DNA of 64,000 nucleotides, from assembly GCF_026571515.1 (NCBI RefSeq), contig NW_026853784.1:62001-126000 (forward strand). Reading direction: 5' to 3'. The position numbers and the translations under genes are program-made. This document shows positions 1 through 58,362 of this stretch, piece by piece. Source of the DNA: Ruditapes philippinarum (taxonomy: Eukaryota). Each line of letters opens with the position of its first letter. Within the stretch, counting starts at the first letter, position 1. A model generated the notes under the pieces. That model was not told the origin of the DNA and did not search any database. It was given only the letters and a program-made list of their open reading frames with translations.

Positions 1-727
1 CTCTAATACTTCATGGTGCGGTGAAAATATTTACTTTAAAACCATGGTTTTATACTCTGACCTTAATCGTTCTACATTGTCTTTTGTGATAATTTTGATA
101 AAAAGATTTTCTTTTTGGTATTAGGAACAAGAAGAGTAAAATAAATTTGAAGTATGTCATTCTTAAGAACAAAGCCATTGCTTAAAATTGTTTATTTATT
201 GTGACCACTTAAAACTAACATGTAACATGAGTGTATCACTATTTAATAAAGTCTCTTAACAATTTGAAACAATAATTTCTAAAATGTACAAGGTGTCAAG
301 GACTATAATATGGGACCTCAGCTTTCAGTTTCATCTATTTGACTCATTTCTTAAAATTATCTTTTTACAACTTATTCATAATTATATACATGCAGTAAAT
401 ACCCACAAATTTCACACATGCATGAGGACAAGGACAAAACAACATGCTTTCTAAATTATCAAGGATGGGTGACCATGATGAAATAAAGAAAACTTCTATT
501 ATGACAATATACCAAACCAAAATGTGATGGATATACAATGTACATAATACATACATATATAGGTGTATACATATAAAATATAACACACAAGAATTGAAGA
601 TACAGTGTAATGAGGTATGGTTATACTGAGGACAAACTCAATACCAGTGTATGGCAGGCAGGGATACAAAAATATATGCCCTTCATTGAAAAAGATAGAC
701 ATTTTTTAGTTTCCTGAACATGCCTGA

Positions 728-912
728 TTTTATTTCATAAATAAAAACTTACCTGGAATAACAGTATGAATACTCTTTTTCTGATCCGCATAATAAACTT
801 TCTCCCGGAAGTTGATAAACTTTTCGTGAGGCGCATGCGCACTCTCGGCAAGTTATCTACTTCCTCCTCTCCCAGTAAACGTCAGTTCTCTTTTTCTTGC
901 GAAAGTATTCGC
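728..912 (+). repeat. DIRS left inverted terminal repeat
   Basis: About 747-912 is the reverse complement of about 5831-5994. Contains GCGCATGCGC (831-840) and CCGGAAG promoter-like motifs. Confidence 0.93.
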
Positions 913-996
913 TTCGTCCGCGGTTAATTTTTAGTTTTGATTAGTTTCTTTAGTGGAAATTAGTTTCTCTACTTGAGATTTATCCAGTTTTGTCTT

Positions 997-2451
997 ATGG
1001 CGACGTGTCATCATGCAGAAGAGGGTGAAATTACGTCTGAAAACGACAGATTTTCTGACGAGCCTCATGACAAGAATATGGCGTCGCCAACACGTGGAGA
1101 TCTATCGAGTAGAAATGACACCGTTTCTTACGTGTCGGCAGGAGAAAATACTGCTAATAAATTGCTATTGACTAAAGACAAAGGCAAAAAGAAAAGTCGT
1201 TCGAAAAAATACGACGAATTGAGCAACAGAATGTGTAATATGGAAAAAATGTTGCAAACTTTTTTAGATAAACAATCCGGTGAAAAAAATGAACAAACTG
1301 TGACAAATCAGTTAAATGATGATACTAATGGACAAAGAAAAAAGTCAAATTCTAAAGGAAATCGTGACAAATTTTTATTTGACTCCAGTGAAGATGATTC
1401 TGACTCTGACATGTTGTCAATTTTTGCTGGCGGTCAAATTTCTCCTGCTCATGAAAATAATGATAGCGCCATGTTGGACAAAAACAACAATAGGGAGGAA
1501 AATGTGGAAAATCTCTCTGAAAATACAAGAAAATGTTTATTTGAAATGTTCGGTGAAGATGCAGTTGTTAAAAAAGTTGAACAGAAAAAGGGTTTAACCT
1601 TGGACAAATCACAAATTGAGGTTATTGATAGTGGTTATAGATGTAAACAACCAAACTTTTTGTCTGCTTTTGCCGAGGAAAATTTTGACCTTTTTCCAGT
1701 TGATGCAGATGCTGAAAAATTGCTAGAGGTGCCATCACTGGATGATATGGTAGAAGTATGTCTTACTAAAAGATATGGGCCTAGGGCTTCTTTTGCTAAA
1801 GGAAAACAGTTATATACACAACCAGCTAAGATGATAGAAAAAGTTGCATATAAAGGGCAGCAAGCTGCTCGGTTAGGACTCGTTATTCAAATGTATATAC
1901 AACAAAGTCTCGGTAACCTACTTCAAATGCTAAATTCTACTGATTTTGAAAGAGATCAAGCTTCTCAGATGGTCAAAGATATTTTTGCTATGAGTACGAA
2001 GTGTTTAGACCAAATTGGAAGAACTGGTGCTTTCCATCATATTGTTAGAAGATCATGTTGTATGAAGGATACAGGTCTGCATGAACAAACTGATAAATGG
2101 GACTATTACAATTTACCTTTGTCAGGGGATGGTGTTTTTGGCAAAGAACTAGAAACTTTGTTGAAAGACAAGAAAGAAAAACGTAAACAAGTTGATGATC
2201 TAATCCCAGATCTGAACAAGAAACGGAAATTATCAGCATCTGGTAATTTCTCGGAGTATAAAAAGAAACAACCGATAGAGAAATTGACTGAAAAACCAAG
2301 CACTTCTTCGTATGGGTTGAACAATTTTCGTATCCCTAAGATCTCAAGATCTGACAGCCGGGGAAAGTTTCGTGGCAGAGGTTATAGCTACGGGACGAGA
2401 CGACCCCCATCTGGTAGAGGAAAGCCAGTGGCAAAAACAGATGAAAAATGA
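997..2451 (+). CDS. DIRS ORF1, gag-like protein
   Basis: First ORF inside the element (ATG at 997, in frame with ORF 973-2451). Low-complexity N-terminus and basic RG-rich C-terminus. Assigned by position. Confidence 0.8.
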   Translation: MATCHHAEEGEITSENDRFSDEPHDKNMASPTRGDLSSRNDTVSYVSAGENTANKLLLTKDKGKKKSRSKKYDELSNRMCNMEKMLQTFLDKQSGEKNEQTVTNQLNDDTNGQRKKSNSKGNRDKFLFDSSEDDSDSDMLSIFAGGQISPAHENNDSAMLDKNNNREENVENLSENTRKCLFEMFGEDAVVKKVEQKKGLTLDKSQIEVIDSGYRCKQPNFLSAFAEENFDLFPVDADAEKLLEVPSLDDMVEVCLTKRYGPRASFAKGKQLYTQPAKMIEKVAYKGQQAARLGLVIQMYIQQSLGNLLQMLNSTDFERDQASQMVKDIFAMSTKCLDQIGRTGAFHHIVRRSCCMKDTGLHEQTDKWDYYNLPLSGDGVFGKELETLLKDKKEKRKQVDDLIPDLNKKRKLSASGNFSEYKKKQPIEKLTEKPSTSSYGLNNFRIPKISRSDSRGKFRGRGYSYGTRRPPSGRGKPVAKTDEK

Positions 2452-4507
2452 CTTGGTAAGTGTAATAGTAAAATATCCGGAGATACCTGTTGGGGGCAGA
2501 CTGTCTCATTTCCTATCACATTGGCAACAAATCACCACAGACAAATGGGTGTTAGACGTGATAAGTCAGGGTTACAAGTTAGAATTCGAGGAAAAACCTC
2601 AGTTTTTAGGCATAAAATCAACACGTGTCCCTGCAAAAAGTCAAAATATAATCAAACAAGAAATAATATCTCTTTTAGAAAAAAATGCTATAGAAGTTGT
2701 CAATCCAAAACTAGCAAATTCAGGTTTTTACAGCACATTATTTTTAGTTCCAAAAAAGAACGGGGAAATGAGACCAGTGATAAATTTGAAACCCCTCAAC
2801 AAGTATCTCCGCAAACAACATTTCAAGATGGACACTTTGGCAAAAATATTAAACCTTGTAGAAAAAGAAGACTGGGCTTTTTCAATAGATTTGAAAGATG
2901 CTTATTTCCATATAAAAATTTTCAAAAATCATCGCAAGTATCTGCGCTTCCATTTTCAAGGAGTAACTTACCAATTTCGAACACTATGTTTTGGCCCAAC
3001 AAGTGCTCCTCGAGTCTTTGTCAAAATAATTTCAGTGGTAGTCGCACATCTGAGAAAATTCAATATTCGTCTAGCAAGTTATCTAGACGATTGGTTAGCA
3101 GTAAACAAAACAAAAATGTTATTGTTGAAAGATCGTTATCAAATACTCAGCCTTCTCTTTCATTTAGGGTTCATCATAAACAAGGAAAAATCACAACTTG
3201 TTCCAATGCAAACTCTCAATTATCTGGGCAGTTATTGGGATTTAATGAAAGGGCTAGTGTTTCCAAGCATGGAAAGACTGGAAAAATTAAAAACAGCTGT
3301 GTCAAACATTCAAAAGGGTCAATGCACTGCAAGACATTTCTTAGTCCTACTCGGAATGATAGCCTCATGTCTAGAGCTTATTCCAAATGCCAGGCTGTTC
3401 ATGAGACCTATACAACTTCATTTATTAAAAAATTGGAGCCCTATCAGAATGAATCTGTCTACAAAAATTCCTTTAACACCTCAACTGATCCAGGATCTGA
3501 ATTGGTTCTTATTGGATCAGAACATTGGCTTGGGCAGATCATTACTGAAAGACAACTTTCAAATAACACTGACCACAGATGCCAGTGGCTACGGTTGGGG
3601 AGGTCACATGAACAGCTTGACATGTCAAGGTCAGTGGACTTTGTCAGAAAAAATGCTTCATATAAATTGTCAGGAAATGTTAGCAGTAATGTTCAGTCTC
3701 AAACATTTTCTATCAAAACTGAAGGGCAAGAATGTTCTAGTCCGATCAGACAATACAACTGTTTGCCAATACATCAATCGGCAGGGGGGCACGAGATCAG
3801 CCCAATTATGCAATATGACTATGCGCCTTTGGCAACTGGCCCTGGAGAACAATATTTTGCTGAAAGCTGCTCATATTTTGGGAAAGAAGAATGTGTTGGC
3901 GGATACACTGAGCAGGGAGAGAGTATGTCAGACAGAGTGGTCCTTGAACAAGACAGTGGTTCTGAAATTGTTCGAGCTTTGGGGTCATCCAATGATGGAC
4001 CTGTTTGCTACTTTCCAGAACAAAAAGACTCCACTGTTTTGCTCTTGGATACACCATTCTCAAGCATTTGCCCTAGATGCTCTGTCAATTCCATGGGAAA
4101 ATCTCTTTGCTTATGCGTTTCCACCAGCACAACTTGTTCCCAAAGTACTCAGTCACATGCAAAAATATCATTGTACAATAATACTAATAGCAAATCAGTG
4201 GCCAAGACAACATCATTATCCACTGTTACTGAAAATGTTAATTGCAAATCCAATCAATCTGCCATGCAGCCAAATGCTCTTGACTCAATGCAGGGGTCGA
4301 ATATCACACCCTCATCCAGAGTCTCTGCATTTGACTGCATGGCTGTTGTCAACAGACATTGGTCGTCAAAGGGCCTTTCTGGAAACACAAGAAAATTACT
4401 GTCTAAGTCATGGAGATCTGGCACACGTAGGGATTATCAAAGCAAATTCAAACAATTTAATAGCTGGTGTTGTGAAAGACAAATTGATCCGTATATTGCC
4501 ACTTTAG
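2372..4507 (+). CDS. DIRS pol: reverse transcriptase, RNase H and DNA N6-adenine methyltransferase-like domain
   Basis: PVGGRL, FLVPKK..RPVINLK, DLKDAY, FG..SAP, YLDD (RT); TDAS, RSDN, N..AD.LSR (RNase H); DLFA..N.K and YAFPP (methyltransferase-like). Confidence 0.95.
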   Translation: MAEVIATGRDDPHLVEESQWQKQMKNDLVSVIVKYPEIPVGGRLSHFLSHWQQITTDKWVLDVISQGYKLEFEEKPQFLGIKSTRVPAKSQNIIKQEIISLLEKNAIEVVNPKLANSGFYSTLFLVPKKNGEMRPVINLKPLNKYLRKQHFKMDTLAKILNLVEKEDWAFSIDLKDAYFHIKIFKNHRKYLRFHFQGVTYQFRTLCFGPTSAPRVFVKIISVVVAHLRKFNIRLASYLDDWLAVNKTKMLLLKDRYQILSLLFHLGFIINKEKSQLVPMQTLNYLGSYWDLMKGLVFPSMERLEKLKTAVSNIQKGQCTARHFLVLLGMIASCLELIPNARLFMRPIQLHLLKNWSPIRMNLSTKIPLTPQLIQDLNWFLLDQNIGLGRSLLKDNFQITLTTDASGYGWGGHMNSLTCQGQWTLSEKMLHINCQEMLAVMFSLKHFLSKLKGKNVLVRSDNTTVCQYINRQGGTRSAQLCNMTMRLWQLALENNILLKAAHILGKKNVLADTLSRERVCQTEWSLNKTVVLKLFELWGHPMMDLFATFQNKKTPLFCSWIHHSQAFALDALSIPWENLFAYAFPPAQLVPKVLSHMQKYHCTIILIANQWPRQHHYPLLLKMLIANPINLPCSQMLLTQCRGRISHPHPESLHLTAWLLSTDIGRQRAFLETQENYCLSHGDLAHVGIIKANSNNLIAGVVKDKLIRILPL

Positions 4508-5331
4508 CGGAATGTGCAGATTTTTTGACATATTTGTTTGATAAAGGTCTCAAATACAGAACTATTAATGGTTATAGATCGATGTTGTCTTCAATTTTGG
4601 GCCCAGTTGATAATACACCTATCGGACAACATCCTTTTATTATAAGATTGTTAAGAGCTGTTTTCAACGAACGTCCTCCTTTAAAAAAATTAGTACCTGA
4701 ATGGGATCTTCTTTTCATTTTAGATTCATTGAAGAAAGCTCCATTTGAACCGCTGAAGGATGCATCTTTACGTTACCTTACTTGGAAAGTTTGTTTTCTG
4801 TTGGCGATTACCACTTTTCGGCGTTGCAGTGATTTGCAATCGTTACGTTTAGGTGAAAACTATGTTAATGTCCAGAAGAAAGGATTGACTTTTATAAGAA
4901 CTGGCTTATCAAAGCAAGATAGACCGAATCATTCGGATAGAAATATTTTCATTCCAGCATTACCAAAAAACAGGACTTTAGATCCTAAAAGAGTGCTTTT
5001 TCATTATTTAAAAAGAACAGAAAAATTTCGTAATGCAGGATCTGACCAAGAAATTGTTAAGTTGTTCATTGCAACAAAGAAACCCCATAAACCAGTTTCA
5101 GCTCAGACTATATCCAGATGGTTGGTTAGCATTATTAAGTTTTGTTACAAGTCACAAAGTAAAGACGTAGGTAAAATAAAAGGTCATTCTACTCGCAGCA
5201 TTGGGCCTTCCTTTGCATTGTTTAAAGGTGCTTCACTTCAGCAGATAATGGAAAGTGCCGATTGGTCAAGAGAAACTACGTTTACTCGGCACTATTTAAG
5301 GACTATAAATACAGATTATATGAATGTGTAA
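2521..5331 (+). CDS. DIRS tyrosine recombinase ORF with long N-terminal extension overlapping pol
   Basis: C-terminal YR catalytic residues: R (TFRRCSDL), H-x-x-R (GHSTR), W (ADWS), Y (FTRHY). True start codon uncertain. Confidence 0.92.
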   Translation: MATNHHRQMGVRRDKSGLQVRIRGKTSVFRHKINTCPCKKSKYNQTRNNISFRKKCYRSCQSKTSKFRFLQHIIFSSKKERGNETSDKFETPQQVSPQTTFQDGHFGKNIKPCRKRRLGFFNRFERCLFPYKNFQKSSQVSALPFSRSNLPISNTMFWPNKCSSSLCQNNFSGSRTSEKIQYSSSKLSRRLVSSKQNKNVIVERSLSNTQPSLSFRVHHKQGKITTCSNANSQLSGQLLGFNERASVSKHGKTGKIKNSCVKHSKGSMHCKTFLSPTRNDSLMSRAYSKCQAVHETYTTSFIKKLEPYQNESVYKNSFNTSTDPGSELVLIGSEHWLGQIITERQLSNNTDHRCQWLRLGRSHEQLDMSRSVDFVRKNASYKLSGNVSSNVQSQTFSIKTEGQECSSPIRQYNCLPIHQSAGGHEISPIMQYDYAPLATGPGEQYFAESCSYFGKEECVGGYTEQGESMSDRVVLEQDSGSEIVRALGSSNDGPVCYFPEQKDSTVLLLDTPFSSICPRCSVNSMGKSLCLCVSTSTTCSQSTQSHAKISLYNNTNSKSVAKTTSLSTVTENVNCKSNQSAMQPNALDSMQGSNITPSSRVSAFDCMAVVNRHWSSKGLSGNTRKLLSKSWRSGTRRDYQSKFKQFNSWCCERQIDPYIATLAECADFLTYLFDKGLKYRTINGYRSMLSSILGPVDNTPIGQHPFIIRLLRAVFNERPPLKKLVPEWDLLFILDSLKKAPFEPLKDASLRYLTWKVCFLLAITTFRRCSDLQSLRLGENYVNVQKKGLTFIRTGLSKQDRPNHSDRNIFIPALPKNRTLDPKRVLFHYLKRTEKFRNAGSDQEIVKLFIATKKPHKPVSAQTISRWLVSIIKFCYKSQSKDVGKIKGHSTRSIGPSFALFKGASLQQIMESADWSRETTFTRHYLRTINTDYMNV

Positions 5332-5686
5332 TCACTTCATTTGGAACTTTTCTCTTAATTCTTGCGGATCGCAGGATATTTTGTTTATTTTTATGTTAAG
5401 ACATCGAGAAAGATGTCAAGACATTGAGGAAGATGTCCATTAAATGATGATGTTTGTATGTAAATACAGTGGGATAGAACTATTTTGTAAATATACATTT
5501 GTATATATGACTGTTAAGAAGCAATAGGAATTCCTCATTTGTATGTTTGGAAGAAACAGATGATGAAGATCATGCTCATTTCATTCTACTAAGGTGAGTA
5601 GGAATGAATTTCTTAGTTTTTTGAAGTATATGATTATTTATGAAAGATTCCCACCACCAGTCTTACATTGCTGTAAAATCTGGTTT

Positions 5687-5793
5687 TATTCATACTGTTA
5701 TTCCAGGTAAGTTTTTATTTATGAAATAAAAATTATAAATTTGTTTTCAAATTGAAGTTTTATGAATAAATAATACTTACCTGGAATAACAGT
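5687..5793. repeat. DIRS internal complementary region (ICR)
   Basis: First half is the reverse complement of the element's left end and second half is the reverse complement of the right end, joined at GAAAT-AAAAA-TTATAAAT. Confidence 0.93.
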
Positions 5794-5830
5794 TACCCTC
5801 CCAACCTCCCCTCTTTCTTTCAGTCCTGGG

Positions 5831-6040
5831 GCGAATACTTTCGCCAGAAAAGGAACTGACGTTTACTGGGAGAGGAGGAAGTAGATAACTTGCCGAGAGT
5901 GCGCATGCGCCTCACGAAAAGTTTATCAACTTCCGGGAGAAAGTTTATTATGCGGATCAGAAAAAGAGTATTCATACTGTTATTCCAGGTAAGTATTATT
6001 TATTCATAAAACTTCAATTTGAAAACAAATTTATAATTTT
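5831..6040 (-). repeat. DIRS right inverted terminal repeat with right extension
   Basis: Reverse complement of the left ITR, plus a unique extension of about 45 bp that matches the ICR. Confidence 0.93.
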
Positions 6041-8381: not shown

Positions 8382-9802
8382 AACAAGAGGGCCATGATGG
8401 CCCTGAGATCGCTCACCTGTATATAGGCCCCCCCCCCCAACGTTGCAGAGCCAATTTAACCCAAGGGCTTTTATTTGCACAAACTTGGTAGACACCCATA
8501 AGAAGATGTTTCATGCTAAACATTTAAGCTCTAGCTCATTGGGCTTTTTAAAAGAAGATTTTTTTTTAGTTTTTACTATACACATATAGTTAAAAACAAT
8601 GACACCCCTGGGGCCGGGCCAGTTTTGACCCCAGGGCTTTTATTTGAACAAACTTTGTAGACACTTACTAGAAGATGTTTCATGCTTAATATCTAAACTC
8701 TAGCTATTTGGGTTTTTTCAAAGAAGATTTAAAGTTTTTGCTAAACACATATAAAGAAAATCAATGACCCCCGGGGCGGGGCCAATTTTGACCCCTGGGC
8801 TTGTATTTGAACAAACTTGGTAGACACCTATTAGAACATGTTTGATGCTCAATATCTTAGCCATAGCTCTTTGAGTTCTTTAAAAGAAGATTTTTTAAGT
8901 TTTTACTATATGCATATAGGGAAAATCAATGACCCCCCGGGGCGGGGCCAATTTTCACCCCAGGGCTTTTATTTGAACAAACTTGGTAGACACCCATTAG
9001 AACATGTTTCATGCTAAATATCTTAGCTCTAGCTCTTTGGGTTCTTTAAAAGAAGATTTTTTAAGTTTTTACTATATGCATATAGGGAAAATCAATGACC
9101 CCCAGGGGCGGGGCCAATTTTGACCCCAGGGCTTTTATTTGAACAAACTTGGTAGACACACACTAGAAGATGTTTCATGCCAAATATCTAAGCTCTAGCT
9201 CTTTGAGTTCTTTAAAAGAAGATTTTTTAAGTTTTTACTATATGCATATAGGGAAAATCAATGACCCCCGGGGCGGGGCCAATTTTCACCCCAGGGCTTT
9301 TATTTGAACAAACTTGGTAGACACCCATTAGAACATGTTTCATGCTAAATATCTTAGCTCTAGCTCTTTGGGTTCTTTAAAAGAAGATTTTTTAAGTTTT
9401 TACTATATGCATATAGGGAAAATCAATGACCCCCTGGGGCGGGGCCAATTTTGACCCTAGGGCTTTTATTTGAACAAACTTGGTAGACACTCACTAGAAG
9501 ATGTTTCATGCCAAATATCTAAGCTCTAGCTCTTATGGTTTTTTAACAGAAGATATTTAAAGTTTTTTCTTTCGGTTGCCATGGCAACCAGAGTTTTGCA
9601 TGGAATTAAATTCTTTGAACAATTTTTAAAGGTGACCACCAAAGGAACATTCCTGTGAAGTTTGGATGAAATTGGCTTAGTGGTTTATGAGGAGATGTCA
9701 TTTAAAGTAAAAGTTTATGGACGGACGGACGGACGCCGGACGGACGCCGGACGAAAAGCGATCACAAAAGCTCACCCTGTCACTTTGTGACAGGTGAGCT
9801 AA
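8382..9802 (+). mobile_element. Helentron-associated (HINE/pearl-like) non-autonomous element with ~165-bp internal tandem array
   Basis: 5' ACAAGAGGGCCATGATGGCCCT hairpin; about 6.5 units of 165-166 bp; (GGAC)n microsatellite at 9719-9752; 3' hairpin AGCTCACC...GGTGAGCT; A-rich flanks. Confidence 0.85.
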
Positions 9803-12058: not shown

Positions 12059-15000
12059 CCTATCTTCTTTCGCATTCTTTTTGCGATCTTCTTCTTCTTG
12101 TATTTTTCGTCTTCTGTCATTTTCTCGTTTCTTCTTTAACCAGTATTCAAACGCCTCCTGGTTTTCCTTTTCTTTGTTTTCTTCCTCTTGTCGTCTTCGC
12201 CTTTCACTGTCTTGCTTTTGTTTTTCAAGGGCTTTTTTCCTATCTTCCATCAACTGTTTTTCTCTTGGTGACAGAGCATAAGGGGAATTATAATTGTCAC
12301 AGTAAGATGATGATCCATGGTTTGTCGGCCCATGAGCAGACTGCGGTCTCTGTTTAGCAGGAGCAGATCTGACGTTACGACGAGAACTAGAAGTTGCTGT
12401 CGAAGGTCTAGGCTTCCCAGGAGGTGCTGGCTGAAGCTTTGCTTTATTTTTCTCATTCTGTTTCTTTTCATTTTCTTTATTTGTATCCTGGTCTAATATA
12501 TATCCTAAATCTTTGGCCCTTACATCGTCTGCGCTCACTAATTTAAATTGTCCATCAATCTCTATCAACACTTCGTCTTTTTTGCCTGAATTTGATTTTT
12601 TGCTGCTAGAAATGGTTTCTGAATTGTCATCAACTTTATCGTCAGTTTGTTTTTTAGGTGTTGAGGTTTTAGTTGATTTTGGACTATTTTGTTTTTTATC
12701 TTCCCCTTCATCATCACTAAAGTCAGGTGGGGGAGCCACAAGATCAATAAGATCTGATTTAAATCCTACTTTTGATTCATTTTGTTTTTCAACTGGAGTA
12801 GGATCATTTTTGAGTTCTTCATTTAAAACTTTGAGTCGCTCAGTGACATCATACTCTGGTGGATCTTCATCTAAATAGAAAATGGTGAAACTTATAACCT
12901 TATATTAATAGAAAATGGTGAAACTTATAACCTTAATATAGACAAGAGCTGTCGGTAGGACAGCAACGCTCGACTATTCTTAGTGCTTGATAGTAAAAAA
13001 AATGCTTGATACAGTTACCTCCTCCTGTTTACAGGTTGGGGTCATGATGGTGAACAAGTGTGCAAAGTTTCAAAGCCATATGTCAATGGACTTTGAAAAT
13101 ATTTGAAATATTACAAAAACTTTAACGTAAATTCTAAGTCGAAAAAGGGGCATAATTCTGTCAAAATGCTTGATAGAGTTACCTCCTCCTGTTTACAGGT
13201 TGGGGTCATGATGTTGAACAAGTGTGCAAAGTTTCAAAGCCATATGTCAATGGACTTTGAAAATATTTGAACTATTACAAAAACTTTAACGTAAATTCTA
13301 AGTCGAAAAAGGGGCATAATTCTGTCAAAATGCTTGATAGAGTTACCTCCTCCTGTTTACAGGTTGGGGTCATGATGTTGAACAAGTGTGCAAAGTTTCA
13401 AAGCCATATGTCAATGGACTTTGAAAATATTTGAACTATTACAAAAACTTTAACATAAATTCTAAGTCGAAAAAGGGGCATAATTCTGTCAAAATGCTTG
13501 ATAGAGTTACCTCCTCTTGTTTACAGGTTGGGGTCATGATGGTGAACAAGTGTGCAAAGTTTCAAAGCCATATGTCAATGGACTTTGAAAATATTTGAAC
13601 TATTACAAAAACTTTAACATAAATTCTAAGTCGAAAAAGGGGCATAATTCTGTCAAAATGCTTGATAGAGTTACCTCCTCTTGTTTACAGGTTGGGGTCA
13701 TGATGGTGAACAAGTGTGCAAAGTTTCAAAGCCATATGTCAATGGACTTTGAAAATATTTGAACTATTACAAAAAACTTTAACATAAATTCTAAGTCGAA
13801 AAAGGGGCATAATTCTGTCAAAATGCTTGATAGAGTTACCTCCTCTTGTCTACAGGTTGGGTCATGAATGGTGAACAAGTGTGCAAAGTTTCAAAGCCAT
13901 ATGTCAATGGACTTTGAAAATATTTGAACTATTACAAAAACTTTAACATAAGTGGTTACGCCGACGCCGACGCTCGGGTGACTGCAATAGCTCTACTTAT
14001 TCTTATCGAATAGTCGAGCTAAAAATTGTGAAACTTATAACCTTATAAAAGTAAACAATGAAAATTTATAACCTTATTATAGAAAATGGTAAAACTTATA
14101 ACCTTATAATAGAAAATGGTGGAACTTATAACCTTATAAAAGAAAATGGTGAAACTTATAACCTTATCATAGAAAATGGTGAAACTTATAACCTTATAAT
14201 AGAAAATATCAAGCATAACCATTTACCTTTGTATATCATAAAGTATTATTTAAAACATAAGATATATTTCATATAATATAACTTTAAATTTGTGAAATAT
14301 TTGTTACATATTTAGATTATTCAAATCATTAACATATTTTAAGGTGAGAATTTGCAGTTACCAGGCAAACAGCCTAATTCAGTTTTGAGATTATCCAGTT
14401 CCTCCAGTGCTCTTTTCTGATCCTCAGTCAAATTATAGTCATCTACTTCTGAATCTTCATTATCACTCTGCTCTCGTGCAGTCACTTTCTCTGTTTTGTC
14501 ATCCTTAGACACATCTTTGTCCTTTTCCATCGTGTTTTGATTCTACAAAGGTAAAATATCAACATTTTTATAACATGAACAGTTTCGGGTTTTATCATAC
14601 ATTTGAATAGCAAGTTTTAAGTAATAATGACATAATAAAGTACAATGTATTGTGTTCAAAATAATCTAATAAAAGGTCATAATAACATATCTTTGCATAC
14701 ATAAAGTTACATAATAATATACATGTATAAACTTAAAATTATGTTTTATTGAAATCAATTGAAAGGGAAAAAATGTAATTATCTTTTAAATATTATCATT
14801 TAGACAAATCTATTTTTCATTAAACAAATTCATTATAACATGATCATAATACATTTTGATTGGTTGCTAGCTTTGTGATATGAATGTTTCTGTTTAAGTT
14901 GGTAGATATTTCATTTAGATATAGATATTTCATTTAGGTCCAGATATTTGACTTTCTGAGACTACTACAAAATGATTATTATTTGTGGGGAACTAATTTT

Positions 15001-18022: not shown

Positions 18023-19197
18023 AACTAGAAATGTGTCATCATGCCACGGATGCAGCCAAAATTTCAGATGTTATAATATTTAGTTCCAAATTTGTTTGCA
18101 CAAATTATTTTTTTTATTTTAAGTTCAAAGCCCTTAAAACTTTTCAATGTTAACACAAAACATTTCCATACATTACAATGTTCAAGGCACTGAAATTATT
18201 CAGTCTTAACCTTTTGAAAATAGCATATTTCATATTTGTAGCCAAAATAATGGCTACATACATTTCCACAAAAGTATGAGTGCTGAAACTGAAAGTTCAA
18301 AATTTTTCCAACATCAAAGAAAGATAACTTTGTCCAAAATCAGTGAACCACGACCAAATTCAAACTTAAACTGCTTATTCCTAAGATGTATCTATATTAT
18401 TTTCAAAGTGAAAGGGATATAACTCTGCCAAAAAATCATCAAACCATGACCAAATTCCAACTTGACCTGGGTATTCCTTTGACATATCCATATGTCAAAT
18501 TTGAGTTGAGGGGCTTTACTCTGCCAAAAATCATTGAACCATGACCAAATTAGAACTTGGCCTGGGCATTCCAAAACCATATCCATATGTCAAATTTGAG
18601 TTGAATGTGTTGTACCGGTGGGGAGATAATAAACAGAAACTGAAAATTTCATATTATTTTCAAAGTGAAAGGTGCATAACTCTGCCAAAAATCATTGAAC
18701 CATGACCAAATTTGAACTTGACCTGCGCATTCCTTTGACATATCCATATGTGAAGTTTGAGTTGAATGTGTTGTACCGTTGGGGAGATAATGAACGGAAA
18801 CTGAAAATTTCATATTATTTTCAAAGTGAAAGGGGCATAACTGTGCCAAAAATCATCGAACCATGACCTAATTCGAACTTGACCTGTATTTTATCATGAC
18901 ATATCCATATGTCAAATTTGAATTGAATGTGTTGTACAGTTGGGGAGATAATGAATGGAAACTGAAAATTTCATATTATTTTCAAAGTAAAAGGGGCATA
19001 ACTCTGCCAAAAATCATCGAACTATGACCAAATTCGAACTTGACCTGTATTTTCTCATGACATATCCATATGTCAAATTTGATTTGAATGTGTGCAACAG
19101 TTACTAAGATAATGAACGAAAACTGATGATGACGGAATGACGGAAGGACGGAATAGGGTAACACTATATGCCCCCGCCATCTAATGGCGGGGGCATA
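18023..19197 (+). mobile_element. HINE/pearl-like element with ~161-bp internal array
   Basis: Starts AACTAGAAAT; units at 18651, 18812, 18973; (GACGGAAT)n; terminal hairpin ATGCCCCCGCCAT...ATGGCGGGGGCAT. Confidence 0.8.
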
Positions 19198-22466: not shown

Positions 22467-25400
22467 ATGAAATGGCTAATTGTAAAGTTGGTTTTTATAG
22501 CATATATTTTGACTCTCGTATCCATTCTTATGTTCTTTCCCGAAATTGGAGTGACGGAGGATAAAAGTAATGAAAAGTGTCAAAGAGAAATAGACCGGAT
22601 AATTCAAAAGTATGAACATACTTTAAATCAAACCGTTCAAAATCTTAAAAAGGAAGATCACACAGAAGAAACTTCTGATGAAGATATCGGACCAGGTAAG
22701 ATTTTCTTATAATTAATATAAATTACAGTTAAAGTACTTACTGCCTATAAAAAAGTTAAATTGGATTTTCTTACCTATAGTGAGATGCAGTATACAAGTC
22801 TGAAATAACTTATGTTTCACAACAGTTAAAAGCACTGTTATTAATTAATAAAGTAACAATTTTTCCTTCTATGTCTTTAAAACTGTTTTGGTTAGTGTGT
22901 TATACAAATACTGAGTTTTAATGAGTTTTCATGGAAATATTTTTTTTTTTGCCACGGACATAAAATGCCAATACCACAATTTAACTATAATCGACTTTGT
23001 GATGTACCCTGAAATACATGTCAGTTTTAATTCCATAGGATTATTTTTAGTTCGAACAGTTTTAGAACATCTCTTTGATAAGTATCTTTCAAAAAGTGAC
23101 CTTTGATTTGTTGAATAGTAGCTATCTACACCTGCAAAAACAACATGGAGTCATTGTGATATACAAATCAATTTATATAAATAGTCTGCTTTTTGTATGT
23201 CTACAAACACTCGAAATAGTAACAGCTAGGAGAGACATATACTGGTGCACAATTTGTCGTCTTATAGTAGAAGACAGAACACGTGTTGTTACACCAGCTG
23301 CTTTAATATGCAAATTAAGCTTATGAAATTAGCCATTCATATAACGTATTATGTATAAAAGAACGTACACCTTTGTCCCGTTAGTATTATTACAAGTTAT
23401 CTAATACTAAACGAATTTTAACAAAACGAGATAAGAGTTTAGAATAAATGGAACTAGAAAAAACTATAAATGCGTTTAACCAACTATTACAGGGTCGCTC
23501 GGCCGAGATGTTGATCTAAGTAGGGTATCACTCAGCGACAGTGAACAAGGAAAGAGGCAAAAACTTCTAGCTCAACATGACTATGATGCTTTTGTTAGTG
23601 ATTTGGTATCTATATACCGCGTTCTTCCAGATACCAGACCTGATGTGCAAGTATTCCGAATAGTATTAAAACAAAATGAACAAATGCATCAGTCAATTGT
23701 AACCCATGCCGTTTTTCCGGGGTGTAGAAAAAATTAGATGTTTTAACCTCTTCTCCCGTACTTGGTAAAGAAAAAAACGTGATTTTCTCTCTTGTCCAAC
23801 TTTGATAAGTCTCCACTATTCAGGAATTGGGGCCGGTATAACAATTGGCAGTAGTAAATAGCGACTTAAAATAAGTACGCCACATTTCTGCTAAAGCCAC
23901 ATTTTTGCAAACGTTATAATATTGATCAGAGCAGCTGCAAGAGTGCATTTTATATACACGCACTCGTGTATATACCTTATCTGTATTAATTAACTACGTA
24001 TGCGATAATAGAAGTTTTAATGTGAATGAAATTTGTAGGTGATATTATAGATTTACAACAGATATAACAAGTTGATTAAAACCAGTAGTGAATTCAAAGG
24101 TCGAAATATTGAATATATTGTGTCAGCTTGTGCCGAGAGACATTTCTAATTGCGAAGTGCAGGAGTCTACATTGAGAATGAACGAAAATATTTTAGATTA
24201 ATTAGATATACCTAATATATTGACCATACCTCATATAGAATATACGCAAAAGTAATATATGATTATCATCGCATAGATTATTTTTACCGTTAACAGTATG
24301 AACATAATGAACAAAATAAACACGTACCTGGCGTTCCAACATTACAAATTTAAATCACCGATCTCAATAACCGGAGCTTATCAGAACTGTATTTACCGCT
24401 TGTATGGAGGAGCGATCTGACAAAAGACAAAAAGAAGCTGAGCAAACCATACAAACTAATACATTAATTCAAACTGTTTGACAATTTTCTCTAGGTGACA
24501 CATGCAATAGTGTTGTGCTGTAAGTTATATAAGACAATAAGAGTTGATTTTTCAATATGTGGTCTTCGTTTGTTATATTAAGTGATGCAATATCATTTGC
24601 GTAGCTAAAGTACAACAAAAGTAATAACGGTTTTTTTTTGTTGTTTCATTTTATTTATTCCATTAACATGTTTTATAAATGTAGAACCAATGTCACTATT
24701 GGTATTGAAATGACATTTTTGTAATACAAAAACAAAACATTTTGGCGTCAGTTCACTTTAGTAATTGCATGTTTATTTATAATTTATCATCGGTTGATAT
24801 TTTTTCAATAGTTTATCGAACAGATATTTCCTTTTACTAACGGCTGCCTTCCATGCTTCTTCTGATTCAAAGTCATCTTCGTCTCGAAGCCTTCTCATAG
24901 TTTGTTTGACAGCTCTGTGAAAGCGATCCTTTTTTACCGATTCAAACCACATAATCCTGAACAGATACTTTTTCATCACTGCCCTTCTGATCACCGGAAG
25001 TAGCTTGTGGTAAGCTTTTTTGCTGGCATCCTTTTCGCTTATGTCATTATCATCTTCCATTATCTCGGAAGCTAACGAGTTCACTTCTTCCTGATGTTCA
25101 TCATAACCGTATTTGACGATATCCCACCAAGGGTCAATTGTTTCTTCAGCTAGTTCTTCATCCGATTTACTTTCCAAATCCGATTCCTCTGTATCGTTGC
25201 TGTCACTGATTTCTGATTCCTCATTCTCTTTCGAACGGGTGTCCTCTTCGTGAACGGATTTCTTATGTCTAAACAAATTGTACTTCTTTGCAAAGTTTTT
25301 GTCACAATCGCTGCAGGCAAACATAATTTTAAGTTGAATGCACTCACTTATAAAACCTCTGTGTAGTTCGAGTTGCGAACGATAAATGACTGAAACGTTA

Positions 25401-28400
25401 ATTCAACGCTAGAGGTAAATATACTATTGTCGAGCAGGATCAGACTTGAGCTCATAATGAGACAGTTAAAACGATATTTGAGTCTATTAAAGTCCCATAG
25501 AGGACTGTCCTCTAGCCCGCTCATTCCTGCTCGTAGATTGCTCTTCCTTTCCCGAACTGTCCTCTTGCCTGCTCATATCTGCTCGTATATTGCTCATTTA
25601 TTAAAAAAGGCCATCTAGCCTGCTCACACCTGCTCGTAGATTGCTCCTTCATTCCCAGACTGTCATTTAGCCGGCTGCTCGACAATAGTATATTTACCTC
25701 TAGCGTTGAATTAACGTTTCAGTCATTTATCGTTCGTAACTCGAACTACACAGAGGTTTTATAAGTGAGTGCATTCAACTTAAAATTATGTTTGCCTGCA
25801 GCGATTGTGACAAAAACTTTGCAAAGAAGTACAATTTGCTCAGACATAAGAAATCCGTTCACGAAGAGGACACCCGTTCGAAAGAGAATGAGGAATCAGA
25901 AATCAGTGACAGCAACGATACAGAGGAATCGGATTTGGAAAGTAAATCGGATGAAGAACTAGCTGAAGAAACAATTGACCCTTGGTGGGATATCGTCAAA
26001 TACGGTTATGATGAACATCAGGAAGAAGTGAACTCGTTAGCTTCCGAGATAATGGAAGATGATAATGACATAAGCGAAAAGGATGCCAGCAAAAAAGCTT
26101 ACCACAAGCTACTTCCGGTGATCAGAAGGGCAGTGATGAAAAAGTATCTGTTCAGGATTATGTGGTTTGAATCGGTAAAAAAGGATCGCTTTCACAGAGC
26201 TGTCAAACAAACTATGAGAAGGCTTCGAGACGAAGATGACTTTGAATCAGAAGAAGCATGGAAGGCAGCCGTTAGTAAAAGGAAATATCTGTTCGATAAA
26301 CTATTGAAAAAATATCAACCGATGATAAATTATAAATAAACATGCAATTACTAAAGTGAACTGACGCCAAAATGTTTTGTTTTTGTATTACAAAAATGTC
26401 ATTTCAATACCAATAGTGACATTGGTTCTACATTTATAAAACATGTTAATGGAATAAATAAAATGAAACAAAAAAAAACCGTTATTAGTTTTGTTGTACT
26501 TTAGCTACGAAAATGATATTGCATCACTTAATATAACAAACGAAGACCACATATTGAAAAATCAACTCTTATTGTCTTATATAACTTACAGCACAACACT
26601 ATTGCATGTGTCACCTAGAGAAAATTGTCAAACAGTTTGAATTAATGTATTAGTTTGTATGGTTTGCTCAGCTTCTTTTTGTCTTTTGTCAGATCGCTCC
26701 TCCATACAAGCGGTAAATACAGTTCTGATAAGCTCCGGTTATTGAGATCGGTGATTTAAATTTGTAATGTTGGAACGCCAGGTGTTTATTTTGTTCATTA
26801 TGTTCATACTGTTAACGGTAAAAATAATCTATGCGATGATAATCATATATTACTTTTGCGTATATTCTATATGAGGTATGGTCAATATATTAGGTATATC
26901 TAATTAATCTAAAATATTTTCGTTCATTCTCAATGTAGACTCCTGCACTTCGCAATTAGAAATGTCTCTCGGCACAAGCCGACACAATATATTCAATATT
27001 TCGACCTTTGAATTCACTACTGGTTTTAATCAACTTGTTATATCTGTTGTAAATCTATAATATCACCTACAAATTTCATTCACATTTAAACTTCTATTAT
27101 CGCATACGTAGTTAATTAATACAGATAAGGTATATACACGAGTGCGTGTATATAAAATGCACTCTTGCAGCTGCTCTGATCAATATTATAACGTTTGCAA
27201 AAATGTGGCTTTAGCAGAAATGTGGCGTACTTATTTTAAGTCGCTATTTACTACTATTGACTTGTGCATAACTGATTTATTCTTTAATTATATAGTTTTA
27301 CATGTAGCTTTAAGTCACTGAAATTGATATTGCTAACGGACCTTGTATATTTAGTCATCTGGAGTTAGTATTTGAGAACCGAAATCACGATAATACCATA
27401 TCTAACAAATAGATTTACAACTAAATAAAAACGTTACCTTTTCGAGGTATTATTTAACAACACTCGGTCAAGCTTCGCACTTATGCACTCTCTTGTATTT
27501 GTTTGGTGCCCTGCTGGGTTTCTCGTGGGTGGTCCTGTGTTCCTGGATTATGTTCGGGGATGCGTACATTGATGCCACACTTCTTAATTGATATTTGTAA
27601 TCATAATGCATTTTGAAATATTTTTGACATAACATGGATGCTTTTAAAATTATAACAATCATACAAATAATTATTTTTCTTTTCCTACAAAAAAAAAATT
27701 TTGTGTGCAAGTATAAGATAGTGTTCATGAGGAAGCATTACCAACATAAATTGGCCAGTAAAGTTACAATATTGAAATTCTATTGGTCAAAAAGTAATTT
27801 GAATTTTATCAAAAAATTTCAAGTAGGTCAGAAAAAATGTGGGTTTTTTTCTCATCAAAGTATGTATTTCATTATTTATCACAATCTCTCTATTTACTAG
27901 ATGTAAACGTATGAAGTACGAGGACTTGCCTGCAGTGAGTATTATCATACCATTCCGAGATGAACGACTGAGTGTGTTACTGAGAACTATACATAGTATT
28001 CTACAGAATACACCGAGCAAACTACTAGCTGAAATTATCATTATTGACGATGGTTCTGAAACAGGTGTGTAAAAAATATGTCAGTATGTTACAAACTCAC
28101 AATTTTTTAAAAAAGAAGGGGGAAAAAAGGAGAAAATATTGTTATTTTATCTAGCAGTAGTAGTAGCAGCAGCAGCAGTAGCAGCAGTAGTAAAAGAAGA
28201 AGTAGAAGCAGCTAGACAAACAAAATCCACGGCTTTTCATATGACTATAAAAGTATTATTTATCACACAAAAGTCAGTGGTAGATACAGCAATGGAACGT
28301 TTTCTATTTTAAATTTCAAATAAAAAATTAAAAGACTTAATGTTGTAAAGTGTGATCCCTCGGAAGCAATAAATACAGCATTCGGCCTTCGTGATTAAAT

Positions 28401-35098: not shown

Positions 35099-36030
35099 AA
35101 AGATGCAATATTAAGTTCGGCTGTATGGGGGATAAATAACGTTTTTGAAACTGTAATAGGACAACAAATTTTTATCCTTATTAAAATGTTCTTTATTGTC
35201 GTTTTAAATTTCTTTCTTTCCTTCTTTCTTTCTTTTTTTCTTTCTTGGTCTTGTCAAGAAATCGTCAAGAAGTCGCAATGTATTTGTAAGAATTGTAAAT
35301 ACATATATTAACTACGCGGTTTGAAATTCTTAAATGTGTTACATTTATAAAGTTAAACAAGTAGAACATATTGATGTACAACATTTGTGTATTTATATGC
35401 CTTTAGCAAATAAAAAGAAAAACAACAGTGAACTACAAGTTTCGTTTTTCTTTATAAATTTGGTATTTATGCTTACAAATATTTGATTCACTATAGCACA
35501 TACCGCTGTATATTAGATTAAAATTTATATGAAAATAAATTAAATTTTAGATACGCGTAGTGAGACTTTCTATTTATAAGTTCTAGATTCAAAGAAAAAA
35601 AAGTTTACTTGTAAATATATTTTTTGATTATCAAAATGTAACGCCATATCAAAGGGCCAGATTATCTCTTTTTTTAGCAAAATTGTGCCCCTTTTTTACT
35701 TTATTTTTTGCCGATTCTAAATTTGGTTAAATAATATACATATATGCAAAATTGAATTAAAAACTAAAGGAAAAATAATGTGTGACTCCCAGAATTTACC
35801 TTGAATAGTCTTGTAATCAGGTCTTATTGCCCGTGTTAGAAACACTTTAAAGGAGTTATTTTGAAGCTTAAAGTGATGATGATTTAACTCCGTACAATAC
35901 CACAAAACATAAATCCGTCTGCATTCACAAAAAAGTAAAATAGCAGGGAAAAGCGACATGGAGATCCTATATAATAGTCTACGGAATGACTAGGTTAGTC
36001 TGTTTTGAGGAAGGACCAGTTTAGCTTTTG

Positions 36031-37054
36031 TTATGCTCCCCGAAAAATTTCGGGGGAGCATATAGTCGTCCGTCAGTCCGTCCGTCCGTCAGTCCGTCCG
36101 TCCGTACGTCCCGAATTCGTGTCCGGCCCATAACTTTGTTATTTGAAGTCGGATTTTAAAAATATTTCACAGAAATTATCACCATATTAAGACGACATGT
36201 TGCGCGCAACATTTGGGTCGCTACCTTGAAGGTCAAGGTCACAGCATGACCTTGCAGCAAAATCGTGTTGGGCCCATAACTTTGTTATTTGAAGTCGGAT
36301 TTTAAAAATATTTCACAGAAATTATCACCATATTGAGACGACGTGTCGCGCGCAACATTTTGGTCACTTCCTTGAAAGTCAAGGTCACAGCATGACCTTG
36401 CAACAAAATTGTGTCCGGCCCATAACTTCGTTATTTGAAGTCCGATTTTAAAAATATTTCACAGAAATGATCATCATATTGAGATGACGTGTCATGCACA
36501 ACATTTGGGTCGCTACCTTGAAGGTAAAGGTCACAGCATGACCTTGCAGCAAATTCGTGTCCGGCCCATAACTTTGTTATTTGAAGTCAGATTTTAAAAC
36601 TATTTCACAGAAATGATCACCATATTGAGATGACGTGTCGTGCGCAACATTTGGGTTGCTACCTTCAAGGTCACAGCATGACCTTGCAGCAAAATCGTGT
36701 CCGGCACATAACTTCATTATTTGAAGTCGGATTTTACAACTATTTCACAGAAATGATCACCATAATGAGACAATGTGTCAAGCGCAACATTTGGGTTGCC
36801 ACCTTGAAGGTCAAGGTCACAGCAGGACCTTGCAGCAAAATCGTGTCTGGCCCATAACTTCGTTATTTGAAGTTGGATTTTACAACTATTTCACAAAAAT
36901 GATCACCATATTGAGACAATGTGTCGTGCACAATATTTGGGTTATTTTTACAATTTGAACTTTGTCTGTGACATAACTCTGACACTACAAGAGGTATACC
37001 TTCCTGTGTCCAAAACCTATTCGGGGAGCATCACCCGGTTCAACCGGCTCTTGT
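36031..37054 (-). mobile_element. HINE/pearl-like element with 146-bp array (about 6 units)
   Basis: Hairpin ATGCTCCCCGAA...TTCGGGGGAGCAT, (GTCC)n, units at 36129, 36275, 36421..., end CCGGTTCAACCGGCTCTTGTT. Confidence 0.87.
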
Positions 37055-38088
37055 TATATACATGTCTTCATATTTTCACCAACTTACGGCTGAAATACAT
37101 CGTCAAAAATACAACACCCCTTCTCCCACCGTATAAGGCAAACATATTATTGTAAGCATACAGTCCAATACAATAATTTTAAAAATGTTGTAAGCTTGAT
37201 TTGATCGAGAATTGTCAAAAAACATGTATGTTGTTGTGCATGGCGACAGTAACGAACCTTACAGAAACGGACATGCTTCCAGTTATGACACAGAGCCGAA
37301 ACAGTGTACACAAAAACTTTTCCCGCTCTTTAATCGTCACCGAGCCGTCAAGTAAAACAATGATTTAATTTTCTCGAAAACATTGGATATTGTTGGTATG
37401 GTTTGGCGACTGAAGAAATGTCAATAATGCACCGCCTTATTGAGAAAGCCTGTACACATTCTGGCTGAGATCGACCAGCTGGGATAATGTACGCCATGTA
37501 CCTGTTAAAATGCCGCTCTTTTAAAGACATATTGCTGAGTTTAACGGCCATCAGATCTCTTTTAAAAGTCGTTCAATTGTTAGGATTTGAAAACCTTTCC
37601 TGTGCACTGGGTAAATGTGAAATATTGCAGCCTGAATGACAAATACAAAGGCTTTCAGATTGTAATTACGAAAGCTAGCCTATAAGAGTTCTTAATATCT
37701 AGTTTTTAGATTTTTTTTTAAATTTCTAAGCAAATCATTGGCAAACAAAAATTATTCCTGCATCTCCATGTATTACGTTTTTGACTACTAGGCAGCGCTT
37801 AATCAGTTCTACATAATCTTGATTTATTCTATCATTAAAAATGAAGTAGAAATAAATCCACTTCTATACTGTTACTTTTAATAACAAATATTTTTTTGTC
37901 TTTTATCTTATTACTTTCATTATGGAATTTGCGAGTTAAGTACTTACCCAAAACTGGAAGACATTGTTTGCAAGGTCCTGTTTAACTGACATACAGTTTT
38001 ATAAAATGAGAAGAGCAAAGTCCGGAATCTATTTAAGTACGGGATAATAATTACACGGCTTTGACAGATTTTAGTGTGTTCTTTAAGC

Positions 38089-53767: not shown

Positions 53768-55949
53768 CTGAAATAAAATAACCAGCAGATATATTATGAC
53801 TAATTTCTTAGAGATTTAAAAATTACGAGACCGATCTGTAATGGATTTATTTTTGTGATATTTAATCAGCATACCATGTATCACGCATATACTGATTTAC
53901 TTATACAACATACAAATAATCTGAAATATTACAGATAGCATGTGCATGCGTGTGTGTTTAGGGTATCAAAGTTTGGCAGCATCCTAATTGTTCTGTCAAA
54001 GGAAAGGGTTGTTTCCCATGTTTTAGAGATCAAATCAATGTTATGGTCGAAAAGTTTCATATTTTGCATGCCGTAAACTTTCAAAATCCATTCTCGGTCC
54101 AAAGAGAATTTTGGTTCTTTCCTTATCCTGACCGCCCTCTGTGCATTATTTAGAATACAAATATAACAAAAAGTCCTTGTTGTTTTTTATGCAATGGATT
54201 GCAATGTATATAACTTGAATATGTAATTAGTTTATAGTTATTTTTACTATATCGTTAAAAGAAATTGTAAACAAGATGAACAATAATATATTTCTAAACT
54301 GTTGCAAAATCATTATAGCTATTAACCTAAAATAATATTTTGAGTGGCAAATGTACAACAGTATAACAATTTATATTCTACCGTTATAATATGTTTTAAT
54401 TTAATTTCTCGATTTTCTATATTGATCCCATGCCTAAAAGGTGTATCTTCTCATATATATCAAGTTTAGTTTAATGTGTTAAAGAGTAAAAGTTATTGGG
54501 GGAAGTGTACCTTAATGATCAGCGACATTAGGAGCACCTCGCCGATTACAAATAATCATCTCGGAAATAATACGGATTGAACGCATATGTATACGCCGTG
54601 TGACTTTTTTATCTGTACGAAATCTACTGTGGTCATAGTATTATTTTTACAATAGGTTTATCTCTTAGATTTGGTTTGCTAAATTGCTAATCATGGTCAT
54701 GCAACTACATAGTTAGATTAAGAAGCAGACGCTTGTTTTGGTTGAGTCTATTATGTTTTGTTTAGGGGGTGAGTTGTCATACACAAATTTACAATTTATA
54801 TGCATTTATTTTTTCCAATGATTGTTATTATCTTAAATGCTTCTGGGATTGTTGTTTTATCAATTCATTTGTAGATAAGATTGTTATATGTCTATTAACG
54901 AAATAATTTTAATGAACACGAAATTAGTTCACACCTACATGTGTATTGGTAACTTGATGGTTAAAGCCAATGAAAACACGTCAATATTATTACAATCAGG
55001 CAGAGAAAAAGTGTGCAAAGAGTAAATCGATAATCTTTATATAGCCAGCAAACTTTGAATTGCAAGTATTTTTTCATATCTTTTCGGCAGGATAAACTGT
55101 CCGAGGATTCGTATCGTAAAATGGCTGCCATTTACAGTATCAAGTGATTATCCCAAGCACCACCGCGACTTAGCGCGGGAATTTTAATTATAGCTAACCT
55201 CGGCGCGTATACCTTTTTCATATTTTATTGTAATAAATATTTACAAACTGTGTCTTTCGGTTTTTTTATCAATATATAACCAATAATGATGTTAATATGA
55301 ATAAATAATCATATCTCAAATCTTTGACTATGATTTACAATGAAATTCTACCTTAAATGTATTAAAAAGGTTTTTAATTTCCTGTAATTTTATTTTGTGA
55401 TTATGCTTCAAAGCAGTCAATTGACCGTGAATTTTCTTTTCATATTTTGATTTCCTTGAAATCATTTTTCTCATCTGAAGGCATGCAACTTTAATATGGT
55501 GATACATTAATTACATTCCATGAAAATGTTTAAAGATATAAAATATCTCATGACATGTATGTTCATTTTACATTACACCTTTAATTCAGCAAACGTAAAG
55601 TCTTCACAAAAAGTAGTATGCAATCGTACCTATATTACATACGAATGTATGTAATATTTTTCTTGTATATAAATAGTAAGAGAGTGTAATCTTTGCATAA
55701 TGAGATATAATTATTTGACATACGTTTGAAAATAAATTGTTTTTTTCCCCAGTCAAATCATATATGATTGAAAAAAAAACATGTCTGACAATCAGAAGCG
55801 AAACACAAACATTAAATTTGTTCACGCCAACAAAATACAATCAAGACAATCAGAAGCATTTTTTAAAATTTATAACGTAATCCGATATATCCCCTAAAAG
55901 GGTATGTCATTTGTACTTTCGGTTCGTAAAATCAATAATAATGTAATTT

Positions 55950-57842: not shown

Positions 57843-58362
57843 ATTTTCATAAATTGTACTTTATGCCGATTATTACACGATATAGGCCAGGGTCTTTCAA
57901 CTAGAAATTTGAATAGAATTTGAAAGATTCTGTACGATATAAAGAAATTAACTATTTCAATAAATCTCATTTCAGCATTTACCCAATTATATTCTGAAGT
58001 TTATGCCAGACCGAAATACCATATACGTTCTGTGTCTTCATACAATTGTGTCTGAGCATTTTAAAAAACCTCAAGTAATCATGATCCGAAGTTTGGCGGA
58101 AAGGACTGTACACATAAGCTTTCGATTAATGTTCGAGGTTCAAATCCGAAGTTTGACAGAAGTTGCAATTGGCGCGCGCGGACGGTTTAATTCAAACCTC
58201 CGACCTTCAAAATGTTAACTAGATAGCTTCCTCACATAAAAGAATTCAACGTTACCGACGGAGCTCGTACCCACAGCGAATATTCACAGACAGCGACCAT
58301 AAACACCTATACTAAATACTTAAATCATTGCTTGAGTATTTTTATTGGTCACATGCCAGATT

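Follow-up and report, generated by a model that had tools for sequence, protein, structure and literature searches.

A palindromic mini-element of Polinton type in Ruditapes philippinarum, probably a helper-dependent satellite with exchangeable ends

We analysed a 64,000-nucleotide stretch of the Ruditapes philippinarum genome (assembly GCF_026571515.1, contig NW_026853784.1, positions 62,001 to 126,000 of the forward strand; hereafter the window), within which a 3,406-bp palindromic element occupies positions 23850–27255. This element is a real, recent, non-autonomous insertion of Polinton type. We consider it probable that it is a helper-dependent Polinton satellite, which became palindromic by copy-back and was then shortened at its centre.

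The arms account for 93% of the element. The left arm (23850–25437, + strand, starting AGTAGT) and the right arm (25675–27255, − strand, ending ACTACT) are reverse complements with 99.1% identity over 1,588 aligned columns, separated by seven substitutions (left-arm positions 24018, 24125, 24599, 24621, 25271, 25273 and 25375) and two indels of 4 bp (24322–24325) and 3 bp (24638–24640), at both of which the left arm has the extra bases. The flanking hexamers, ATTGGC on the left (23844–23849) and ATTGAC on the right (27256–27261), form a target-site duplication matching at five of six positions, and a match of at least 5/6 has a chance of about 0.8% at local base composition. The short-repeat terminal motif and the long terminal inverted repeats of Polinton-type elements are both present, as is their 6-bp target-site duplication, here at 5/6. 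Comparison with siblings elsewhere in the genome delimits a 483-bp outer module, terminus A (23850–24332, + strand), of which the first 413 bp are common to sibling C1657 and the last ~70 bp are private to the window element; terminus A is also 75–89% like pieces of C6918. Inward of it lies the family core (24333–25437, + strand), which comprises a 3′ region, a gene and a 5′ region and is 97–99% identical to the siblings. The gene (24773–25324, − strand) is intact and encodes a 183-amino-acid (aa) protein with a C2H2 finger, an acidic linker and a helical domain, as assigned from the open reading frame (ORF), Pfam and a structure model; a second intact copy lies in the right arm (25788–26339, + strand), with the finger at residues 2–25 and the helical domain at residues 61–179 (ORF, Pfam and profile). 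These two divergent, unbroken reading frames, whose products are one residue apart, are the only ATG-initiated ORFs of at least 100 aa, and the element carries no polymerase B, integrase, ATPase, protease or capsid gene. Self-alignment defines an asymmetric centre of 237 bp (25438–25674) with degenerate 52-bp repeats, visible by self-BLAST at 77–84%; Tandem Repeats Finder did not call them in this spacer and does call them in two siblings. The alignment and the ORF scan bear out a preliminary description of the element, which had reported ~1.58-kb reverse-complement arms with about seven substitutions and 4- and 3-bp indels, the same ends and flanks, and two divergent finger genes unaccompanied by a protein-primed polymerase B, integrase, ATPase, protease or capsid ORF.

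A fold-back artefact of assembly is very unlikely, because each flank is connected to an element end in short-read contigs that were assembled independently. The contigs derive from three DNA runs of three studies, one of which may be the assembly's own source. The left flank–terminus junction was spanned in all three runs and the right flank was joined to the terminus in two of the three, so that two separate unique flanks each reach a terminus in independent runs. The arm segment private to the window element had about double the depth of the junction contig (2.3–2.5 times, contig depth being a rough figure), and siblings at other sites have the same architecture, which likewise speaks against an artefact. 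We give that explanation hardly any credence, even though the central joint is unspanned among the contigs listed and four left-arm variants are absent from the read contigs: at 24322, 24599, 24621 and 25273 the right-arm state appears in all three runs, so that errors of assembly, or variants carried by a single animal, may account for some of the arm differences. A further run, guessed to be RNA, covered the core beside a sibling-type neighbour and did not cover the window terminus, which is a weak hint of transcription of the family, not of the window copy.

A search of the 1.41-Gb assembly with DNA and protein queries (150 of 156 candidates scored in the final protein search) showed that the element is not a lone mini-Polinton and that its doubled gene is not the rule. 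It has eight close siblings, some partial, and several more distant groups of relatives, and belongs to a family of 37 gene loci. Within the stretches examined, target-site duplications matched at 6/6 in 20 of these loci and at 5/6 in five, and were lacking in 12. The 25 loci with at least 5/6, the level needed to call a locus bounded, each lie at another site, have paired AGTAG (n = 11) or TGATG (n = 14) ends and span 3.4–7.8 kb; L085, which lacks an inverted repeat, is a doubtful member. One gene copy is present in 19 of the bounded loci and two divergent copies in six (one partial). Duplications of 6 bp at many independent sites strengthen the earlier suggestion of integrase-type insertion, and the further palindromic copies with different duplications that had been proposed were recovered genome-wide as C1657, C813 and C4614, giving with the window element four that are at least 93% palindromic. 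The close siblings combine a constant core of ~2.4 kb with at least five different outer termini, and hold the spacer as a ~408-bp unit in one to four copies. Alongside these, loci L117–L136 (e.g. G000:C7674:108908-113501) make up a family of 4–5.6-kb elements that end in TGATGA, have 6-bp duplications and carry one gene; two genes occur in none of its 14 bounded loci, and no autonomous partner with TGATGA ends was present among the 40 candidates scored of 131. In the small elements of a second lineage, a further ORF of 134 aa with no Pfam match lies upstream of the finger gene (L074:3936-4337).

Complete Polintons of 15.7–17 kb are also present in this genome; they bear AGTAGT at their ends, their repeats do not exceed ~1 kb, and their duplications match at 6/6. 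Our comparison set comprised 27 Polinton loci, which are part of the genome's total and some of which are incompletely covered; 95 of 95 candidates were scored in the capsid search and 91 of 164 in the polymerase search. Two of the siblings share their ends with capsid-encoding Polintons, C15351 with C15739 at 97.5% identity over 770 bp and C12317 with C13841 at 98% over 100 bp, while the second lineage (C813, C4614 and C9132) shares only its outer 350–800 bp, at 88–91%, with the complete Polinton C9746. The latter (C9746:262-15937) also encodes a BIR (inhibitor of apoptosis) domain ORF (E = 5e-21). The family core and its gene have no DNA match in the 27 loci, and the 50 kb around each listed polymerase or capsid match contains no match to the gene domain. 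Because the siblings' outer termini match Polintons while the core matches none of the 27, the sequence pattern fits a satellite that captures ends and not a plain deletion product. Full-length Polintons sharing the terminus had been anticipated, which was borne out for the sibling termini (97–98%) and not for terminus A, present on none of those found. Within two mismatches, terminus A is confined to the window element and C1657, both palindromes; the first 59 bp of the window element are 75% like the end of Polinton C13841.

These comparisons also bear on a rival account, in which the element arose by internal deletion from an autonomous Polinton that is absent from the assembly and whose very long repeats contained the gene; we regard this account as quite unlikely. 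It has a precedent in butterfly Polintons, which have gene-bearing 2-kb repeats according to the available portions of 10.1101/2025.02.07.637071. The finger-helical module does occur in capsid-less Polintons of this genome, and similar genes presumably exist within cnidarian Polintons. Yet in three lineages the outer termini alone, never the core, match autonomous elements, one core bears at least five termini, and perfect palindromes contain no interior to delete; the lack of gene-domain matches near listed polymerase or capsid matches points the same way. No interior derived from an autonomous parent was found among the 27 loci.

Turning to the palindrome itself, comparison of the arms indicates that one window arm was likely copied from the other, because the two have the lowest distance and share private changes. 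They are five substitutions apart in the 1.1-kb core against 8–18 to eight other full-length arms, and in their outer part they differ from both arms of C1657 by the same six substitutions and 2-bp gap. Both also carry the 70-bp joint seen in no sibling; the C1657 arms share three private changes of their own. Among larger elements, C1197 (48086–60466) is a 12.4-kb palindrome of a polymerase end with a 6/6 duplication, whose 5,852-bp arms include the polymerase gene; arms can thus outgrow the terminal repeat in this genome, since the repeats of its complete relatives (87% identity) measure 943–998 bp. C12449 duplicates a polymerase end too, at 93–96% identity to C4304. In C1197, two nearly full open polymerase genes face each other, with no integrase or capsid.

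The centres of these elements are informative as to how the copying may have proceeded. C1657 is palindromic up to its centre, whereas two-gene C12317 and one-gene C6900 have a hairpin tip, with a 7-bp stem and a 1-nucleotide loop, at the start of the spacer. The joints of C1657, C15351 and C12317 have short inverted copies of nearby sequence, and the centres of C1197 (a 21-bp tandem array), C813, C4614 and the window family lie in or beside tandem repeats. Taken together, these inverted copies and tandem repeats suggest that a displaced strand underwent template switching. Because siblings keep the hairpin tip that is lost here, an ancestral palindrome likely came first and the central deletion after; we infer that this ancestor was a full palindrome and that uneven deletions followed, some restoring the one-gene state. 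One-gene siblings, which have 1.66-kb repeats without the gene, may derive from such a palindrome. The preliminary description had offered copying back of a Polinton end or loss of the interior as alternatives, and both seem to apply, a palindrome followed by central deletion; arm copying does occur in this genome, and the part of the proposal that did not stand is that the arm is the end of any full-length Polinton found.

A palindrome could also arise within the same satellite family by recombination or break-induced copying of two head-to-head molecules. The arms of C12317 are unlike, with 17 core substitutions, different outer parts and termini and a 103-bp shared end, a sign that two molecules have been joined on at least one occasion, and exchange between molecules is already required by terminus swapping. 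For the window element we nevertheless judge this route unlikely: its arms, like those of C1657, are closest to each other and share private changes, and a fold-back would be consistent with the hairpin-like centres and with the short inverted copies seen at joints.

In the protein shared by these elements, a single C2H2 finger and an acidic linker precede a helical domain that makes up most of the chain. Pfam recognized only the N-terminal finger (E = 2.5e-5, marginally below the curated cut-off), and the helical domain was modelled confidently (predicted local distance difference test, pLDDT, ~98 in the domain). That domain has no sequence match in Pfam, PHROG or PDB; fold searches that started from two models, at pLDDT 77 and 88, reached Z scores of at most 5.1 and 6.5 and Foldseek E values above 0.6, none of them a clear match, and Atlas searches with the protein returned finger clusters only or nothing usable. 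A profile of the helical domain matched 967 clusters (50% identity) at E up to 0.001; of 20 looked up among 150 listed, none carries a name, but several clusters occur in many copies on Mb-size contigs. Four scans of viral contigs for relatives of the gene found none, and a metagenome scan found one 1.4-kb contig. The ratio of nonsynonymous to synonymous substitution rates (dN/dS) between two mini-element subfamilies is 0.12–0.15, in three readings of one deep branch, and indicates that the gene is under purifying selection.

Against the 27 Polinton loci, the profile gave full-length matches in four capsid-less 9–11-kb elements alone, where an ATPase-like domain is continued, within a single frame, by finger, acidic stretch and helical domain. 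HHalign aligned the fused module with the family protein at 94% (E = 1.3e-7), and the fused modules scored 12–25 bits against a best of 7.8 among 1,004 shuffled or reversed controls; the capsid-encoding Polintons tested had no match to the finger-helical gene. The recurrence of the module in capsid-less Polintons, joined there to an ATPase-like protein, shows that the gene is of Polinton stock. Among 120 Polinton-type ATPases of other origin, two bear fingers of the same kinds. The fusion hints at a link between the finger-helical protein and the ATPase; a complex prediction for the helical domain with the C13841 ATPase, in which alignments were not used, scored 0.00 and counts neither way. 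The four capsid-less elements (C4116, C15324, C7025 and the second element of C1829) encode a polymerase with a finger at its start or ahead of it; three contain integrase ORFs, and three have 6/6 duplications. One fusion protein had no Pfam match, and its Met-started frame showed no Walker A motif.

Taken as a copy-back satellite, the window element would have formed as follows. A helper's protein-primed polymerase would start at the AGT ends and displace a single strand, which would bend back on itself where a short hairpin adjoins the 52-bp repeats and prime copying of its own arm, yielding a palindrome with two origins. A central deletion would take out the hairpin tip and one spacer copy, and the helper's integrase would insert the product, leaving the 6-bp duplication. 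Arm copying could also spread a newly captured terminus to both ends, so that the core could switch helpers. Its finger most likely attaches the finger-helical protein to the DNA of the element itself, and the protein, as the ATPase fusion tentatively suggests, may tie that DNA to the helper's packaging or replication machinery. It is possible, if rather doubtful, that animal Polintons have a satellite class of their own, 3–8-kb linear elements with a conserved finger-helical protein and ends from different helpers, which alternate by copy-back between a one-gene and a palindromic state and use the protein to commandeer the packaging motor of the helper. Palindromes would then be integrated snapshots of free linear replication intermediates, and we know of no direct observation of such intermediates for animal Polintons. 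We see very little chance that the element is instead a fold-back element mobilized by another transposase that makes 6-bp duplications. Such duplications are not exclusive to Polintons and the window element encodes no integrase, but sibling ends are 97–98% identical to the ends of integrase- and polymerase-encoding Polintons here.

Several observations count against the copy-back satellite. The left-arm/spacer joint (25437/25438) was spanned by none of the contigs listed, and an empty site was found neither in the assembly, where the left flank is single-copy, nor among the listed contig loose ends. In a tree of the arms, five of seven inner branches are open and the window arms are not grouped; only one core variant is exclusive to them. 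The central joint of the window element, from which the hairpin tip and one spacer copy are missing, has just 2 bp of microhomology, and C12449 has no duplication (3/6). To these are added the two-molecule joins indicated by C12317, the gene-bearing repeats of butterfly Polintons, the partial reach of the Polinton set and of the polymerase search, and the failure to find an autonomous element with terminus A in the genome. With regard to selection on the gene, dN/dS in recent gene pairs is 0.6–1.0, on 11–13 changes.

Other elements were seen alongside. Window positions 725–6040 hold a tyrosine-recombinase (DIRS-like) retrotransposon with split inverted repeats and three intact, overlapping ORFs of 484, 688 (reverse transcriptase and RNase H) and 928 aa, and positions 58363–59254 hold a ~890-bp fold-back element with near-complete inverted arms. 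Tandem arrays of 146- and 161–166-bp repeats occur at 36028–37063, 55947–57850, 8436–9556, 12999–13955 and 18417–19126; two of them are preceded by a GTCC microsatellite, in which we take them to resemble bivalve Helentron-like elements. Elsewhere in the genome, C1974 and C6760 are polymerase-B elements with a different gene set, for which no ends were found within the stretches examined.

Replication of Polintons has so far been inferred from gene content, and the elements described here record arm copying, end swapping and fold-back integration, all of which protein-primed strand displacement directly predicts. A survey that depends on core genes (e.g. PMC10748475, going by its available portions) would by design miss such elements, for which the large unnamed helical domain offers a marker in other animals. 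If the protein does hijack its helper, satellites could limit the spread of Polintons, as phage satellites do. Literature searches, which did not cover the founding paper, Repbase or supplements, returned no description of palindromic or end-swapping Polinton satellites, and the available portions of PMC11414722 and 10.64898/2026.10.13.758929 hold nothing on such elements.

Among known systems, Polintons are described in the available portions of the literature as having a short-repeat end motif, long terminal inverted repeats and 6-bp duplications (PMC10748475, PMC8097293, PMC3014272; sizes, repeats and duplications also in PMC6431247), the end repeats being thought to serve jumping-back initiation (PMC8097293). 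The window family shares with Polinton/Maverick elements (Polintoviruses) the end motif, the inverted repeats and the 6-bp duplications, and its sibling ends are common to both; the window element differs in its 3.4-kb length against their 13–25 kb, in its lack of core genes and in arms that fill 93% of its length. Non-autonomous Polinton derivatives, reportedly described by Kapitonov and Jurka in 2006 and in Repbase as deletion products of a parent, are similar in being helper-dependent, with Polinton ends and no core genes, but by that description differ from the present family, in which the core does not come from the end donors, the ends are swapped and the gene appears to be under selection. 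Palindromic or hairpin derivatives are known for terminal-protein linear replicons such as yeast pGKL1 and Streptomyces pSLA2, as is panhandle repair for adenovirus. As in those replicons, one end is copied onto the other, repeats are extended and telomeres replaced, and for Streptomyces linear replicons extension of terminal inverted repeats and telomere replacement by arm copying are described in the available portions of PMC7205883. Those replicons are free in culture or are bacterial chromosomes, whereas the window family is integrated in an animal germ line with target-site duplications. The family shares no helicase, integrase or other gene with transpovirons or phage-inducible chromosomal islands. 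Like these virus satellites, however, its members are small, putatively helper-dependent and equipped with conserved genes of their own.

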